DNA from: Cyanobacteria bacterium J06648_1 | Lineage (GTDB): Bacteria; Cyanobacteriota; Cyanobacteriia; Cyanobacteriales; Xenococcaceae | Direction of reading: 5' to 3' | DNA: 64,000 nucleotides | Assembly: GCA_039817275.1 (NCBI GenBank) | Contig: JBCBWB010000001.1 | Location: 25,344-89,343, forward strand | In this document: piece by piece, positions 9,015-61,170 of the stretch | Layout of the letters: every line of letters begins with the position of its first letter | Position numbering within the stretch: position 1 is the stretch's first letter | Position numbers and translations under genes: made by a program | Notes under the pieces: model-generated | Told to the model about the DNA's origin: nothing | The model's input: only the letters and a program-made list of their open reading frames with translations | The model's database searches: none

Positions 9015-9111
9015 TAGTTAGTTTAATAGCGATCGCCCTGACGCTGAATGTTTCTGTAAAATGTTAGAACAGATAATTTTCCGTAAATAAAATTTCAATC
9101 AATTTACTGTA

Positions 9112-9161
9112 ACCAACGGTCAGAGCAGGCTCCGTCGTTTTACGGCGGAGTAATCTCTGAC
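9112..9161. repeat. 50-nt imperfect hairpin element (empty copy of the element at 47153-47355)
   Basis: The outer stem GTCAGAG...CTCTGAC encloses the inner stem CTCCGTCG-TTTT-ACGGCGGAG. It lies between convergent stops at 9014 and 9181. Its reverse complement matches 47153-47169 and 47327-47355. Confidence 0.8.
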
Positions 9162-9180
9162 TACCCACCGTCTTTCGATC

Positions 9181-17783: not shown

Positions 17784-18027
17784 GAGTGCAGTAAATAAGA
17801 ATCAAGTTTTACGTTTAAATACAACAGTCTTATCGCTTAACTAGGGAAGAACCATGATGGGTTATGCAAAAATGTTTTTTTTGTTGTAAAAGTTAATGTT
17901 ACTGAGCAAACAGCATGATGGATTAAAACTAGAGGTGACCAACTGTCCTAGCCCTCAGCCCTAGTTTCTGTTCCCGTAGCTGGAAAATCTAGAACTGAAA
18001 ATTGCTATCAAAGAAAATCATTGCCAA

Positions 18028-25757: not shown

Positions 25758-25924
25758 ATTAGCTTTATAATATGAATCTTAAAAATCCTCACCATTCATG
25801 AAGTGTTGTGATGCCCGCCAATGTAGCCCAGTATATTAAGGCTTGGCTTTTATGTCAGTATCTAAAAACCAGTTTCAACTGTTTAATTTATTGAGCCGAT
25901 AAGTAAGACTCTTGTACGGGAGGA

Positions 25925-26291
25925 GTATCCTAAAGGATACCGCTTCGCATATGAGGAAGTCGTAACGTCCTCATCAGGCGAGCGACCCACAGAGCCGCGG
26001 GCGCATTCGCGCCCAGTGCCAGCGAAGCTGGTCAGATGCTTCGCATCGCGCTCAAAGTTGCTTCGCAACGCTGGCGCAATGCGCCGTTCGCGCGGAAGCG
26101 AAGCTTCCTAGTCGTGCGAGGCCTCTGGCTTCTAGCCCGCCAGGGCGGACTGCCCCGAAGGGGCTACGACGACGATCTGCCGCATAACAAAGGCTTCGCC
26201 TTAGAGCCTCTTTTAGAGGCGATGGTGCAACGCACCGTGCTGCGGCGCAAGGGAATGCGCGAGATTGGGGGTTGGGGGAAAGTTCCCCCAA
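25925..26291. repeat. GC-rich island of at least 14 concatenated mini-hairpins (mosaic of small dispersed modules)
   Basis: Perfect short stems at 25925-40, 25951-74, 25999-26014, 26019-31, 26035-47, 26057-69, 26073-85, 26094-108, 26152-64, 26190-202, 26206-20, 26224-36, 26245-60 and 26272-91. GCGAAGC/GCTTCGC occurs six times. Individual modules recur at 42.9, 46.3 and 47.2 kb. Confidence 0.8.
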
Positions 26292-26385
26292 TACAGATCT
26301 TATCTTTAAAGATAACTTCTATAGGGCAGAAAAAGATGCCAAGTCTTTTATCTAATTCGCATTAGACGTAATCAGTCATCATCAA

Positions 26386-46253: not shown

Positions 46254-46318
46254 CAGTGAACAGTAAACAGTCCTAAAGGATAAGCTTCGCAAATAAACAG
46301 TAAACAGTAAACAGTTAT
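46254..46318. repeat. CAGTAAA heptamer tandem array split by a 23-nt insertion
   Basis: CAGTGAA 46254, CAGTAAA 46261, CAGT(46268-71)|23 nt|AAA(46295-97), CAGTAAA 46298, CAGTAAA 46305, CAGTTAT 46312. Confidence 0.85.
46272..46294. mobile_element. 23-nt mini-hairpin module CCTAAAGGATAAGCTTCGCAAAT inserted inside one heptamer unit
   Basis: Removing it restores the CAGTAAA register. The same module (TCCTAAAGGATA..GCTTCGCA) occurs at 25928-25949. The boundary is ambiguous by 1 nt. Confidence 0.55.
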
Positions 46319-46365: not shown

Positions 46366-46956
46366 CTAGCGACCTAAAACAGTAACTGTTACTGGTGCTA
46401 CTCCCGAATGCATCATATTCAATGTACGTGCCGCCGCTGCCGAGAGATCAATTACCCGACCTTTGACAAAAGGGCCGCGATCATTAATTCTGACTACTAC
46501 CGAACGACCATTATGCAAATTTGTTACCTTAACTCTTGTGCCAAATTTTAGATATTTATGAGCCGCAGTCATAGCATTTTGATTATATCTTTCGCCATTG
46601 GCGGTCAGACGACCATGAAACCCAGGGCCATACCAAGATGCTTTGCCACTAAAAGAACTAGCTATTAGAGGTTGATTGCGCAGAGGAATTATCTGCTGAG
46701 GACTACCCAATTCAAAGTTGTCTTGCAAATCTATTTGAGATGTCTCGTTAGCAAAACTTCTGGCAAGAATCAGGTGCAAATCTAGCGATTGATTTTCGGC
46801 AGTATCTAGAGTAGATATGCTTAAAGTCTGTTGTCTAGAAGTACTAGTCTCTGCCGTAGCTTTAGAACTATTGAATAAAAGATTAACAGTTAAGCAAAAA
46901 GCGATCGCCAGGTAGTTACTATATTTTGAGTATTTAGATAAGTATTTAGATTTCAT
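46366..46956 (-). CDS. rlpA: septal-ring lytic transglycosylase RlpA-family (DPBB) protein
   Basis: [60 protein letters not shown] is the RlpA double-psi beta-barrel signature. A signal-like N-terminus is present. Confidence 0.8.
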
Positions 46957-47152
46957 ATTTTTAAAAGTTTTTTAAATTAACGGTCGGTTGATTTAATAGA
47001 TTTGCTTTGTAACAGATAATTTATATTTGCATCTATCTTAGGATTGATAAATGCTATGGCAAAATTGTATATCCACCCAAATTATTTATAAAGTTTTCAA
47101 CAACTAACATCTAATTCAGCCTTGCTGTCGCCAAAAAAACGACGGTAATTTA

Positions 47153-47355
47153 GTCACAGATTACTCCGCGCACAAAGCGGAGCTTTGCCAGTCTCCGCAG
47201 CACGTACGTGCAGTCCGCCGCCAAGGCGGCTAGCAAATCTTCGATTTGCGCGAGATGATGAGGGCGGTGCTTACGCACCTGACCGTCCGAAGGACGGCAC
47301 TGGACGCATTCGCGTCTGCGCCTCGCAAACGACGGAGCCTGCTGTGACCGTTGGT
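47153..47355. mobile_element. composite element: arms of the 50-nt hairpin element separated by 157 nt of seven further mini-hairpins
   Basis: The arms 47153-69 and 47327-55 match the reverse complement of 9112-9161 at 16/17 and 28/29 positions. Internal hairpins lie at 47164-82, 47200-11, 47217-30, 47233-49, 47266-79, 47283-97 and 47303-16. Confidence 0.6.
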
Positions 47356-47572
47356 CAAATCGCTCAGATAAACTTCTCTGTTACTCTATTGAGAATTGAC
47401 AGCAAGAATCAAAATTACCCCGATGTCCATAGCGTGCAATCATTCATTGGTTGTAAAGAAGCATAATTGTTGTTCAGAACTATACTCACTCTAGACAGCA
47501 ACATTTAGACGATTTCTGGTTTAATATTTCTAGGCTACGGCAAATACTTACCTTTGTTAGGCAATAATACTT

Positions 47573-48598
47573 ATGGACTATAAAGACGCTGGTGTTGATG
47601 TAGAAGCGGGACGTTCTTTTGTCAACCAAATTCGTCAGGATGTTGAAAGCACCAAGCGACCAGAGGTATTGGGTGGTTTAGGCGGCTTTGGTGGTCTATT
47701 TCAAATGCCTTCTGGCTATGAGCAACCCGTTTTAGTTTCAGGTACAGACGGTGTAGGGACAAAGCTAAAAATTGCTCAAGAAATAGGTTGCCACGATACG
47801 GTGGGCATTGATCTGGTAGCGATGTGCGTCAATGACATTCTGACCTCTGGCGCAGAACCGCTCTTCTTTCTAGACTATTTAGCTACTGGAAAACTCAACC
47901 CTCAGCAGTTGGCGGAGGTAGTAAAGGGTATTGCTCAGGGTTGCCGTCTGAGCGGCTGTGCGTTGTTGGGAGGAGAAACAGCAGAAATGCCAGGGTTTTA
48001 TCAGCTAGGAGAATACGATCTGGCGGGGTTTTGCGTTGGCGTAGTCGAGAAAAGCAGGCTGCTAGATGGTTCGCAGGTACAGATTGGCGATGTAGCGATT
48101 GGTTTGGCTAGTGCGGGAGTTCACAGTAATGGTTTTAGCCTGGTACGAAAAATTGTGGCAGCAGGGGGATATAAATGGTCTGATACCCCAGAAATCTTCA
48201 ATGGTAGTAGCCTCGGTGCAGAGTTAATTAAGCCAACTCAAATTTATGTCAAACCTATCCTCGAACTGCTCAAAACAGAAATAGAAGTTCACGCCATGGC
48301 TCACATCACAGGAGGTGGCTTACCAGAAAATTTGCCTCGCTGCTTGAATCAGGGGCAGTCCATTAAAGTGAAACAAAATAGCTGGGATGTTCTTCCCGTG
48401 TTTGAGTGGCTAGCCGAAGCAGGAAAAATTCAATCCGAGGCTATGTTTAATACTTTTAATATGGGTATTGGCTTTGTGGTAATGGTGTCGCCAGAACAAG
48501 CTCAATCAGCCCTAGACTGGTTTAAATCACAAGACATCGCCGCTGCGGAAATTGGCACAGTGATTGCAGGAGACGGGACTTTATCAATTGATAGTTGA
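47573..48598 (+). CDS. purM: phosphoribosylformylglycinamidine cyclo-ligase (AIR synthetase)
   Basis: [12 protein letters not shown]..., [23 protein letters not shown], and GGETAEMPG. Confidence 0.92.
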
Positions 48599-60644: not shown

Positions 60645-61170
60645 AGACTTTCCTGTATAAATTTTTAAGATAATATATGTGTTGTATGTTCTGAAAATAC
60701 CCTAGATCGAATCTCCGAAGGGTCGTGAAAGTTACCGAAAATCAGATCTTGATCTACAAATGTACGCCTCGTGATTTCATTTGTAGCTACCAGACTTACA
60801 CTTTTTGAGATAGATGCTATATAAAGCAGTATACTATTATGTCGTAGGCTAGAGGAAAAGCTAAATCTATGGCATCAGTACCATTTCCCTCATCATAGCT
60901 TGGGTCTGTCCCCAATATTTAGCTACAAAAATTCAGTGACAGAATTTTGCTCCTGTTCAAATTATTTGTGCCAGAAAGACCAAAAGAGCGATCGTCAGCT
61001 CGACAAGCTAAGCTAACTATTTAAAATTTCTAACAATCTGGTTAACTTACCAACGGTGATCCGTATCATAATAAAAGGTCACTGACATTATCACGTCCTT
61101 ACATAAACTCATATCTTTAACTTAGAGATATACCTTAATACACACTCACTTTAATTAAAGGAGACAATAT

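Follow-up and report, generated by a model that had tools for sequence, protein, structure and literature searches.

A probable composite mobile hairpin element in the rlpA-purM spacer of a cyanobacterium

Introduction

How repeats that are too small to encode anything are moved has been an open question since the small dispersed repeats (SDRs) of Nostoc. These repeats, SDR1-8, occur in Nostoc punctiforme and its relatives. PATEs, which belong to the IS200/IS605 systems, have two different subterminal hairpins and are longer than 100 nt. SDR-like repeats were reportedly not found outside the Nostocaceae (PMC5861425). The Rickettsia palindromic elements (RPEs; Ogata et al. 2000) are described as palindromic selfish repeats that lie in frame in unrelated genes as well as in spacers (PMC10969869). 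Cyanobacteria also carry RAYT subclasses 2.4, 2.7, and 2.8 with "long" REPs (PMC3116915, PMC3733652, PMC6006769).

Here, a stretch of 64,000 nt from Cyanobacteria bacterium J06648_1 (the window) was analyzed with a focus on a dense cluster of hairpins between rlpA and purM. A first-pass annotation had described this cluster as a 50-nt hairpin, also present elsewhere in the window, whose arms are held apart by seven additional mini-hairpins. The 203-base feature is probably a tiny mobile DNA hairpin of 48 bases, the tip of which was enlarged at least three times by further small hairpins. On balance, the evidence favors a single copy of a composite, non-autonomous mobile hairpin element. The 48-nt hairpin is referred to below as the host, the DNA at its apex as the fill, and the whole structure at 47153-47357 as the island.

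Results

Anatomy of the Island

Apart from one mismatch per arm, the left arm (47153-47169, GTCACAGATTACTCCGC) and the right arm (47327-47355, AAACGACGGAGCCTGCTGTGACCGTTGGT) of the island agree with 9112-9161 read as its reverse complement. The two mismatches are mutually complementary (GTCACAG/CTGTGAC in the island vs GTCAGAG/CTCTGAC at 9112-9161), and the arms are 157 nt apart in the island compared with 4 nt at 9112-9161. A covariance model of the host, run over the 64-kb window, found only the island (in split form) and the copy at 9107-9163, in line with the first-pass identification of the two pairs of arms as the same. The left arm also matches 73 other copies among the matches listed. 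Four other assemblies contain the copy at 9107-9163 in identical form, and its edge is where short-read contigs end.

All seven mini-hairpins that had been proposed (47164-82, 47200-11, 47217-30, 47233-49, 47266-79, 47283-97, and 47303-16) are perfect stems, and their intervals cover 103 of the 157 nt of the insert. None of 2000 dinucleotide shuffles reached seven such intervals (mean 1.1 +/- 0.9, maximum 5), so that the observed number lies far above the shuffled sequences. The RNA fold of the island has a z-score of about -4 on both strands, and the G+C content of the insert is 62-65% compared with 22-33% in the flanking spacer. In outline, the nested arrangement was thus recovered: a host hairpin repeat carries extra hairpin DNA in its apical region. 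Readings of the island as an attC site, a CRISPR repeat, or a terminator were rejected on anatomy. The parts of the island are given in table 1.

Table 1. Features of the island and of the second host copy (positions are those of the window)
Feature	Position	Strand	Remarks
Left GTCA of bracketing 4-nt direct repeat	47153..47156	+	target-site repeat or preferred target; also first 4 nt of basal stem
Host left arm	47153..47169	+	basal stem GTCACAG 47153-59, internal loop ATTA 47160-63, upper stem CTCCGC 47164-69
Level-1 fill, 5' part	47170..47196	+	CAAAGC-GGA-GCTTTG 47173-87 (hairpin A); GTCTCC 47191-96 (hairpin B, left half)
Block B, net 51 nt, at tip of hairpin B	47197..47251	+	GCACGTACGTGC 47200-11; GCCGCC-AA-GGCGGC 47217-30; GCAAATC-TTC-GATTTGC 47233-49
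Level-1 fill, middle	47252..47266	+	GAGAT 47252-56 (hairpin B, right half); GAGGGCG 47260-66 (helix C, left strand); from alignment A3 and MFE structure
Block C, about 48 nt net, in helix C loop	47267..47318	+	GGTGC-TTAC-GCACC 47266-79 (first base, 47266, overlaps the preceding part, the middle of the level-1 fill); CCGTCC-GAA-GGACGG 47283-97; GACGC-ATTC-GCGTC 47303-16
Level-1 fill, 3' end	47319..47326	+	helix C right strand CGCCTC 47319-24, then GC; from MFE structure and alignment A3
Host right arm	47327..47353	+	AAAC (loop remnant), GACGGAG 47331-37 (upper stem), CCTG 47338-41 (internal loop), CTGTGAC 47342-48 (basal stem), CGTTG 47349-53 (tail)
Right GTCA of bracketing direct repeat	47354..47357	+	can pair with basal-stem TGAC: TGACC-GTT-GGTCA 47345-57
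Spurious 93-aa ORF	47185..47466	+	read-through of the family's conserved stop-free sense frame into the flank
Empty (unfilled) host copy, GTCAGAG/CTCTGAC subtype, between convergent genes	9107..9163	-	84.8 bits to host model

The Host Family

A genome scan with an exact 17-base right-arm pattern yielded a family sample of at least 106 loci; since the sample consists of exact matches to this pattern among the matches listed, the conservation of the family is overstated. Among the copies listed, at least 50 are empty and at least 23 are filled, with fills of 26-161 nt that all lie at the apex. They add 18 to 153 nt to the empty host, and the apex is the sole variable region. The empty copies have exactly the same length throughout and are nearly identical across genera; the fills are unrelated between lineages. 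The nested reading had depended on the existence of empty and intermediate copies in relatives, and besides the 50 or more empty copies there are intermediate fills of 26-152 nt, with a paralogue in a sister assembly that has 110 nt (vs 161 nt in the island).

The host is built on a basal stem of 7 bp. Above it lie a 4x4 internal loop (ATTA/CCTG) and an upper stem of 8 bp in which a C.A mismatch is conserved. The apical loop is A-rich, and the 3' tail reads CGTTG-GTCA, of which CGTTG is conserved on one strand of the element only. The structure is reflected in covariation: a basal pair is GC in 30 copies and CG in 18 with no mismatch, the closing pair is GC, CG, or UA, and the C.A mismatch is kept in 47 of 48 copies. 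The consensus of the left end is nAGTCAGAG, the base preceding AG not being conserved. Copies are single and strand-asymmetric (model scores of about 85 bits for one strand vs about 25 for the other). They occur in at least 25 species-level genomes, mostly of the Pleurocapsales together with some filamentous genomes of the Oscillatoriales type (Lyngbya, Microcoleaceae). Copies in spacers are found in either orientation, without orientation bias relative to the neighboring genes.

A full-text literature search for the host sequence returned no match. Rfam 15 gave no match at gathering score in the whole window, and at E <= 10 the best hit in 47050-47600 scored 16.5 bits (E = 1.5, gathering score 44). 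The host is apparently an undescribed dispersed hairpin repeat of the Pleurocapsales and some Oscillatoriales. Two weak covariance-model hits (17933-17997 and 61044-61084) were rejected as having only a GTTGGTCA-like tail in common with the host, and a metagenome scan with the left junction AGATTACTCCGCGCACMAAGC gave a single chance match inside a coding gene.

Insertion Site and Boundaries

Three orthologues with 88% identity lack exactly 16 residues that a kinase of Waterburya (P0124) contains. At the DNA level, one orthologous pair reads TCTA GTCA ACAG when empty and TCTA GTCA[48 nt ending GTCA]AAAG when occupied. As read from this one orthologous empty site, the host enters at a GTCA, lengthens the DNA by 48 nt, and is then bracketed by GTCA on both sides; the host and both GTCA together measure 52 nt. 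The GTCA repeat may represent a true duplication or an insertion beside a preferred GTCA. Rare variants of the left end match the tail in two out of three cases (GCCA/GCCA in L108 and CTCA/CTCA in L057), and in about 10 of 50 copies the tail varies independently with the left GTCA fixed. The ends inside the GTCA repeat, CAGATTAC... and ...GACCGTTG, are not inverted repeats.

Preservation of the Reading Frame

Of the 74 listed copies, 23 fall within stop-free frames that span 200 codons or more, which places about one third in frame within genes. Eight of these frames were scanned for Pfam domains, and six of the eight have domains that flank the element on both sides or one domain that spans it. 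The settings include an NRPS A domain, a PKS KR-ACP linker, Pkinase, cNMP-binding, and CHAT. Within these proteins the element is predicted to add 16 to 35 or more residues, for example to NRPS adenylation domains and kinases; among the predicted peptides are SHRLLRRKTTEPAVTVGQ and DQRSEQAPS...GGVISD.

Length events among the copies listed are multiples of three in 13 out of 14 cases (P = 6e-6). Stops inside the fills number 15, 24, and 1 in the three sense frames, and 8, 14, and 0 in an independent subset (P = 1.3e-4). The host itself is open in one frame per strand, and across the island span (47153-47357, 205 nt) there are 2, 3, and 0 stops in the sense frames and 3, 0, and 2 in the antisense frames, which leaves both host-open frames free of stops. 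Because the fills keep to multiples of three and avoid stops, the family can occupy spacers and genes alike without doing harm. We know of no description of such a rule, combining length in multiples of three with a stop-free frame, for bacterial repeats.

Growth of the Fill

Alignment A3 provides a growth series that runs from the empty host through Hyella patelloides (locus L019, 62 nt) and L114 (110 nt), the paralogue from a sister assembly of the same species, to the window (161 nt). The island was built up from three or more blocks, of 54, 48, and 51 nt, and every block brought three hairpins to the tip of a hairpin already present. The 54-nt three-hairpin unit was the first and gave the state seen in Hyella; about 48 nt at the tip of its third hairpin (again three hairpins) followed, as seen in L114, and the last step was 51 nt at the tip of its second hairpin (likewise three), the state shared by the window and L113. 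Fills in the family are nested up to three levels deep.

The 5' part of the level-1 fill is homologous to the Hyella fill and to L114, and its hairpin A covaries (CAAAGC-GGA-GCTTTG in the window vs CCAAGC-AAA-GCTTGG in Hyella). The conserved covarying hairpin at 47173-87 is CAAAGC-NNN-GCTTTG. The overlapping CTCCGC/GCGGAG stem, which had been taken for a possible variant core copy of the host, turned out to be specific to the window variant; L114 and Hyella have GCAAAG at this place. Block B, also found in L113, L001, and L002, is missing from L114/L115, where a perfect hairpin GTCTCC-TTC-GGAGAC stands in its place. The B step was not a clean single insertion but reads as 43 nt on one side of a retained TTCG and 8 nt on the other, and the TTCG at 47240-43 may be the original loop. 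Helix C of Hyella is GAGC-CTAACT-GCTC with a plain 6-nt loop and no block C. Within block C of L113, the loop GAA of CCGTCC-GAA-GGACGG is replaced by its exact reverse complement TTC, that is, the hairpin is flipped.

Apart from island copies, blocks B and C have no other copies in the related DNA compared, and none of the seven mini-hairpins (12-17 nt) recurs above control level in 875 kb of related DNA. The idea that the seven are independent repeated elements has to be given up in favor of entry as three-hairpin blocks of 48 and 51 nt on a 54-nt three-hairpin base. By their likeness to other fills, blocks B and C may themselves be inserted elements. A filler module (CCTAAAGGxxACCGCTYCGCATA) that occurs in host loops was also found at position 25928 of the window and in L001, L007, L041, and L094, and a 23-nt filler module is shared by L123 and L094. 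The filler module CCTAAAGG..ACCGCTYCGCATA adjoins tandem hexamer/heptamer repeats in L007, L094, and at 46270-46315 of the window. The likeness to the small repeats of Nostoc that had been drawn from the sequence is apt in this respect, one filler module lying also outside host loops beside heptamer tandem repeats.

The rlpA-purM Locus

The island lies on the purM strand, 213 nt upstream of the purM start codon. The composite is present in several copies: it is found upstream of both purM and an HhH-GPD gene, and a shorter form lies between two crp-like genes; the island copies in L113 and L114/L115 are at other loci. Assemblies break inside the island, and in L001 the synteny is lost exactly at 47151 and the arm pair is mismatched. 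A comparison of the rlpA-purM spacer across relatives revealed a decayed, unfilled host at the orthologous position in a related species (L123, score 49 vs 29 +/- 4.2 for shuffles, maximum 44), which agrees with the nested reading. The island is absent from the corresponding spacer of L124, and the purM-proximal 80 nt downstream of the island are conserved in relatives. A three-way alignment of the spacers gave no pre-insertion site, the middle of the spacer being too diverged. No terminator-like site was found in the spacer, where a promoter/terminator scan was uninformative. The element is probably without function for rlpA or purM at this locus.

Just outside the left arm, AAAACGACGG (47135-44) is present as the first-pass annotation described it; as it aligns to native spacer in the relatives (AATAAAACAA in L123, AAATCGACTG in L124), it is poor evidence of the further partial copy that had been suggested. 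The ORF at 47185-47466 had been called an artefact of the island. It is indeed not a gene, given that its sole homologues among 5.8 billion proteins (P0001-P0003) are translations of island copies elsewhere, but it is not a random artefact either, because the element family preserves the reading frame and is often intragenic.

Discussion

Comparison with Described Repeats

To our knowledge, frame preservation, copies inside genes, and a defined 4-nt flanking repeat have not been described for the SDRs, with which the host was compared by description only. The SDRs resemble the host in that they are very small, have hairpin potential with compensatory changes, are nested in one another, lie beside heptamer tandem repeats, and are present or absent between relatives; the mobilizing mechanism is known for neither. 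The host differs by adding 48 nt compared with 21-27 nt for the SDR units, and by its range, which covers Pleurocapsales and Oscillatoriales compared with Nostocaceae for SDR-like repeats (PMC5861425). The RPEs share with the host the character of a palindromic selfish repeat that is found in frame in protein-coding genes and in spacers and adds a peptide without breaking the gene. They are, however, about 100-150 bp long and confined to Rickettsia (PMC10969869), whereas the host is a 48-nt cyanobacterial repeat that is unrelated in sequence, is open in one frame per strand, and grows by nested, frame-keeping apical additions.

REPs and REPINs, including BIME mosaics, are also short imperfect hairpins with conserved mismatches, high copy number, vertical persistence, and presumed mobilization in trans as single-stranded DNA (PMC3116915, PMC3733652, PMC6006769). 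In contrast to REPs, the host has no conserved 5' GTAG or CGTC tag, consists of one hairpin and not of an inverted pair of REPs (REPIN), and is often intragenic where REPs are essentially extragenic. A RAYT gene flanked by host copies was not found in 940 kb of collected loci.

The PATEs of IS200/IS605 are likewise strand-asymmetric and hairpin-based, and the GTCA beside the left end and at the 3' end of the host, which is complementary to the internal TGAC, resembles their pairing of cleavage site and guide and their insertion 3' of a fixed tetranucleotide. The host differs by having one hairpin instead of two and in that no TnpA was found in the collected loci; moreover, a true duplication fits better than a PATE-like target logic because two left-end variants co-vary with the tail. 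Integron attC sites resemble the host as imperfect single-strand hairpins with conserved unpaired bases and an apical "variable terminal structure" of very different lengths. In contrast to attC, the host tail GTTGGTC fits GTTRRRY (R') in six of seven positions with no complementary RYYYAAC (R'') at the left end, and host copies are dispersed singly and not in cassette arrays. A classical MITE differs from the host by its terminal inverted repeats, which are not seen inside GTCA, and by a parent IS, none of which was seen.

Alternative Explanations

Alternatively, the inner hairpins could have arisen on the spot, through template switching during replication or through fold-back synthesis at the extruded hairpin tip (quasi-palindrome "correction", inverted duplication), with selection then keeping the in-frame, stop-free products. 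Such a history would suit mini-hairpins that do not recur above control level, blocks B and C without another copy, and stems that are all perfect though each sequence is unique; the GAA to TTC inversion in L113 is a signature of intra-hairpin strand switching, and block B flanks the retained TTCG symmetrically with GCAAATC/GATTTGC in the manner of a templated stem extension. However, fold-back should give one long inverted duplication of adjacent sequence and not steps as large as 48-54 nt with three unrelated hairpins each, the filler of other lineages is demonstrably shared DNA (the CCTAAAGG... module and the 23-nt module of L123 and L094), and template switching does not account for the dispersal of the host. 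We consider growth in place unlikely, though not far-fetched. Internal deletion is the usual history of MITE families, and the long form might accordingly be ancestral, a MITE-like derivative of a larger element from which the 50-nt copies and the intermediates arose by internal deletions that retained the terminal inverted repeats. The arms can be read as imperfect 19-nt inverted repeats and there is a short flanking direct repeat, yet this derivation is improbable in view of the majority of empty copies (50 of the 73 listed) with their one exact length and near-identity across genera, the unrelated fills of different lineages, and the lack of an encoded transposase in any fill. It is further opposed by the unfilled remnant at the orthologous site of L123, by the short hairpin B of L114, a perfect 6-bp hairpin unobtainable by simple deletion of the window sequence, and by element ends that are not inverted repeats beyond GTCA.

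Two functional readings are weaker still. The island could be a structured RNA, either a purM leader or riboregulator or a small RNA gene, in which variable peripheral stems are kept by selection; its position on the purM strand upstream of the start codon, the strong folding (z about -4), the covarying stems, and the UUCG or GNRA-type loops of some fills would be expected of such an RNA. The copies nevertheless show no orientation bias to neighboring genes, a third of them lie inside ORFs in either orientation, and RNA-stable tetraloops are not favored among the fill loops when these are read on the element strand, one paralogue loop even being flipped. With the island missing from the L124 spacer and decayed in L123 although the purM-proximal 80 nt are conserved, no Rfam match near the gathering score even at E <= 10, no terminator-like site, and a multiple-of-three rule that an RNA role leaves unexplained, we hold this to be very improbable. 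That ORF 47185-47466 is a real small protein gene in which the hairpins are incidental is scarcely credible: it does offer a stop-free frame of 93 codons, and similar ORFs were called in other assemblies, but the three homologues share the island-encoded part only while their flanks diverge, the product is low-complexity, rich in Arg, Pro, and Ala, starts at TTG and has no Pfam domain, and the ORF is missing from the orthologous spacers.

A Possible Mechanism

For a composite mobile hairpin element, a trans-acting enzyme would recognize the conserved basal hairpin and the tail. The best guess for such an enzyme would be a transposase of the HUH/Y1 type (IS200/IS605 or RAYT) that works on single-stranded DNA and relies on pairing of the element TGAC with GTCA. 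The apex would be dispensable for recognition and single-stranded upon extrusion of the hairpin, and would therefore be a place open to additional DNA. Further spread would be limited to composites that retain the arms, a length in multiples of three, and a stop-free frame, because these would be tolerated wherever they land, genes included. The high G+C content of the filler may have its cause in the scarcity of stop codons in G+C-rich DNA. Clustering of the flanking ORFs of 72 loci revealed no recurrent neighbor, only housekeeping and multidomain proteins, and a crude regular-expression search for the HUH...Y motif found no HUH/Y1 ORF in the 940 kb of collected loci.

Significance

The host family offers a tractable case of mobility in very small repeats, with sharp boundaries (48 nt, GTCA on each side), a resolved empty site, and many fill states, and cultured strains such as Hyella patelloides LEGE 07179 and Lyngbya aestuarii BL J carry it. 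At a practical level, the elements break short-read assemblies, mark synteny breakpoints, and yield false ORF calls such as 47185-47466. A bolder interpretation, which we put forward tentatively and regard as rather doubtful, is that the host represents a new class of ultra-small (48-nt) mobile element that selects its target through base pairing between the TGAC it carries and GTCA. It would be a translatable, orientation-independent "protein insertion module" that grows recursively by hairpin triplets at hairpin tips under a strict frame rule and is moved by an enzyme or RNA-guided system that has so far not been connected with such repeats. If this were true, the host would continually supply cyanobacterial proteins, NRPS and PKS enzymes included, with new surface peptides.

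Structure of the island between rlpA and purM

A 616-nt spacer separates purM from a divergent rlpA-like gene and contains the hairpin island at 47153-47355. The outer arms named in the first-pass annotation (GTCACAGATTACTCCGC at 47153-69 and AAACGACGGAGCCTGCTGTGACCGTTGGT at 47327-55) are real and match the reverse complement of the short host copy at 9112-9161, and the arm spacing given there (4 nt at 9112-9161 and 157 nt in the island) was confirmed. Each island arm differs from the reverse complement of 9112-9161 at one base and these two differences complement one another (GTCACAG/CTGTGAC in the island vs. GTCAGAG/CTCTGAC in 9112-9161). All seven inner hairpins listed in the annotation are perfect stems at the coordinates given there, and the seven hairpin intervals cover 103 out of 157 nt; dinucleotide-shuffled controls contained 1.1 ± 0.9 intervals and none out of 2000 reached the observed number. 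The insert has a G+C content of 62-65%, compared with 22-33% for the spacer, and the island displays a folding z of about -4 on both strands. A search of Rfam at the island found no family.

Distribution and consensus of the host repeat

With the right arm of the host as query, a scan covering a single genome for each species returned at least 106 loci. At least approximately 70 of the matches listed are full host copies, and the remaining ones are chance 18-mers in unrelated bacteria. The copies derive from at least 25 cyanobacterial species, mostly Pleurocapsales (Waterburya, Hyella, Pleurocapsa, Myxosarcina, and Xenococcaceae), and include Lyngbya and other filamentous cyanobacteria. The nearest relatives of the window PurM are found in marine cyanobacterial MAGs, and Waterburya and Pleurocapsa share 80-85% identity. 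The host consensus is (A)GTCAGAG-ATTA-CTCCGCCG-TAAAA-CGACGGAG-CCTG-CTCTGAC-CGTTGGTCA(A). Its basal pair is G-C in 30 copies and C-G in 18 and is never mismatched, G-C, C-G, and U-A are all found at the closing position, and 47 out of 48 copies retain a C.A mismatch within the upper stem. The element is asymmetric between strands, with model scores of ~85 bits on one strand and ~25 bits on the other. Neither a preferred orientation relative to the adjacent genes nor a recurrent neighbor among the flanking genes compared was found. A full-text literature search with the host sequence gave no paper with a match; the host is a widespread repeat that apparently has not been described so far.

Diverged relatives of the host were identified at four positions (L025:4078-4119, L101:5758-5807, L023:446-502, and L023:7698-7741). 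Their stems differ in sequence and remain complementary (e.g., GTCGAAG...CTTCGAC and CACCGCC...GACGGTG) and some of them directly adjoin a canonical copy, which suggests that the host is part of a broader superfamily. Two window segments on the minus strand (17933-17997 and 61044-61084) score 16.6 and 13.3 bits with the covariance model; the sole shared feature is a GTTGGTCA-like tail that follows a hairpin, and these hits are probably chance matches.

Successive fill states and growth of the island

Among the copies listed, 50 have the plain 8-nt inter-arm interval and 23 carry extra DNA of 26, 31, 32, 50, 53, 59, 62, 65, 83, 143, 152, or 161 nt. Empty and intermediate copies thus both exist, and the nested architecture that had been proposed is not refuted on this count. 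The extra DNA is located at the apex in all filled copies, which retain the 3' portion of the host loop beside the right arm. Three pairs of loci (L081 with 53 nt and L038 with 143 nt, L020 with 32 nt and L012 with 50 nt, and L063 with 59 nt and L084 with 83 nt) are successive states of further nesting.

A protein search with the translated ORF 47185-47466 identified three relatives only, all of them translations of other island copies, and their contigs led to two further island loci. The first, L113, is from another assembly, lies upstream of a HhH-GPD gene and shares 97% identity with the window island; the second (L114/L115) is flanked by two crp-like genes. L114 belongs to the same assembly as L001, the locus with the purM copy. 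The window island was aligned with L114, with L019 from Hyella patelloides, and with the empty host. The first level, which is the Hyella state, adds 54 nt net with three hairpins. In L114, a further ~48 nt with three hairpins (47266-47316) lie inside the loop of helix C, and in the window and L113 the tip of hairpin B carries another 51 nt, again with three hairpins (47200-47249). As judged by this alignment, the four states form a clean growth series. Two additional proposals were not supported: the supposed variant core hairpin CTCCGC-7-GCGGAG is not conserved, L114 and Hyella carrying GCAAAG there, and AAAACGACGG just outside the left arm, read as a hint of a partial copy, corresponds to native spacer sequence when aligned with L123 and L124. 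In L123, a relative whose PurM is 90% identical, the orthologous rlpA-purM spacer holds at this position a decayed host remnant that lacks a fill (score 49 vs. 29 ± 4.2 for shuffles, maximum 44); no remnant was found in the corresponding spacer of L124 (88% identity).

Genes and hairpins of the island region and host copies within genes
Feature	Position	Strand	Remarks
rlpA-like gene	46366-46956	minus	divergent from purM
purM	47573-48598	plus	
Hairpin A	47173-87		CAAAGC-NNN-GCTTTG; covaries with CCAAGC-AAA-GCTTGG in Hyella
Hairpin B			GTCTCC...GAGAC in the window; perfect GTCTCC-TTC-GGAGAC in L114
Helix C			GAGGGCG...CGCCTC in the window; GAGC-CTAACT-GCTC in Hyella
In-gene copy	L074:4201-4312		NRPS adenylation domain
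In-gene copy	L073:5536-5590		PKS KR-ACP linker
In-gene copy	L078:4262-4361		Ser/Thr kinase
In-gene copy	L083:1755-1809		cNMP-binding domain
In-gene copy	L108:1092-1146		CHAT domain

Reading frame and copies inside genes

The length gained is 48 nt for the host itself, 18, 24, 45, 51, 54, and 57 nt for the fills, and 18, 24, 48, 51, 90, and 102 nt for further nesting steps. Overall, 13 out of 14 length events are multiples of three (P = 6e-6). Within the fills, the sense frame that is open in the host contains 1 stop, compared with 15 and 24 in the two other sense frames; the corresponding numbers for the subset of independent families are 0, 8, and 14 (P = 1.3e-4). The window island has no stops in the two host-open frames and two to three in each of the four other frames. 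ORF 47185-47466 had been dismissed as an artefact; there is indeed no gene here, but the frame is not random and represents the conserved open frame of the host continuing into the flank. We infer that the high G+C content of the filler fits stop-codon avoidance.

About a third of the copies (23/74) lie within stop-free frames of at least 200 codons. The host has a single open frame per strand (sense, S[QH]RLLRRKTTEPA[LV]TVGQ; antisense, DQRSEQAPS..YGGVISD). A Pfam scan of eight long frames with a host copy identified real genes in every case: in six, which include the in-gene cases of the table, domains flank the element on both sides or the element lies within a domain, and the other two are histidine kinases with domains downstream of the element only. 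The in-gene copies in the table are in frame, and some already carry a fill of 45-57 nt. A Waterburya kinase (P0124) contains exactly 16 extra residues (HRLLRPKRTEPAVTVG) compared with three 88%-identical orthologues. The empty orthologous sites read TCTA-GTCA-ACAG (L127) and TCTA-ATCA-ACAC (L126) and the occupied site reads TCTA-GTCA-(CAGATTAC...CCGTTG-GTCA)-AAAG, so that in this one resolved case the element adds 48 nt with GTCA on both sides. Left-end variants equal to the tail occur (GCCA/GCCA in L108 and CTCA/CTCA in L057), and tails also vary independently of the left end; the GTCA bracket may be a true 4-nt duplication or reflect insertion beside a preferred GTCA.

Probable recombination between copies and origin of the filler

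From 47151 on, L001 and the window share 99.5% identity; upstream of that point the genes of L001 are entirely different, with an M50 peptidase region in place of rlpA (window 47151/L001:9579). The arms of L001 form a mismatched pair, GTCAGAG with CTGTGAC; its left arm belongs to the other subtype, as would be expected if element copies had recombined. The mismatch in L113 is the opposite one. Both look like exchanges between copies, with an assembly join at L001 as another possibility. In several samples, short-read contigs break off within the island or at the left edge, precisely where the paralogues diverge, and short-read and Logan contigs also end at the edge of the 9107-9163 copy. Contigs ending at or inside these two elements (9107-9163 and 47153-47360) comprise L003-L005, L116-L120, and L132-L134, indicating that the host family fragments assemblies of this organism. 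The composite is multi-copy and appears to be recombinogenic.

A shared filler module, a hairpin with a TAAA loop followed by ACCGCTYCGCATA, is present inside the host loops of L020 and L012 and outside host loops at window 25928 and in L001, L007, L041, and L094, often adjoining tandem hexamer or heptamer repeats. Furthermore, L123 and L094 have a 23-nt module in common, and filler in other lineages is thus partly shared DNA. Neither the ~48-nt nor the 51-nt block of the island, nor any of its seven hairpins, recurred in ~875 kb of related DNA, and the insertion of foreign mini-elements is therefore inferred for the island by analogy. Growth of the fill in place via template switching is a live rival. 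The hairpin CCGTCC-GAA-GGACGG has its loop GAA (47289-47291) exactly inverted to TTC in L113, between otherwise identical stems; this hairpin flip is indicative of DNA-level strand switching.

Other hairpin islands were observed. A larger G+C-rich island between genes (25905-26300) contains ~20 short perfect hairpins, including GTATCC-TAAA-GGATAC, GGGCGC-ATTC-GCGCCC, GCCCC-GAA-GGGGC, and GGTGC-AAC-GCACC, and no recognizable host arms; it is spanned by stop-free ORF calls on the plus strand (26036-26365) and on the minus strand (26052-26291). L001 contains a related island (~1700-2100) whose stems show compensatory changes. The panC/cmk-rlpA spacer of the window (46270-46315) carries a GTCC-TAAA-GGAT module with three tandem AAACAGT heptamers after it, and the same spacer in L123 (1780-2020) holds a ~230-nt hairpin-chain island that is missing from the window and includes the 23-nt module of the L094 fill.

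Possible mechanism and relation to known repeats

The basal hairpin and the tail of the host are conserved and the apex is variable, in-frame copies persist inside genes, and the composite is present at several loci. A trans-acting enzyme may recognize the basal hairpin, while the apex, dispensable and single-stranded, would accept added DNA, and frame-keeping composites would spread because they are tolerated anywhere. An HUH/Y1 single-strand transposase is favored as the mobilizing enzyme because the element is asymmetric and forms a single imperfect hairpin, TGAC can pair with both GTCA sites, and cyanobacteria are rich in such genes (PMC3116915, PMC3733652, PMC6006769). No HUH/Y1 gene was found near host copies among the flanking genes or by motif search.

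The host lacks the defining tag of REPs (GTAG or CGTC) (PMC3116915, PMC3733652, PMC6006769) as well as those of attC sites and of classical MITEs. The nesting and the tie of the filler module to heptamer repeats resemble the SDRs of Nostoc; SDR-like repeats have reportedly not been found outside the Nostocaceae (PMC5861425). The in-frame behavior resembles that of the Rickettsia palindromic elements (PMC10969869). Overall, the host can be described as a small hairpin repeat that is nested, explicitly frame-preserving in its design, and resolved at an insertion site.
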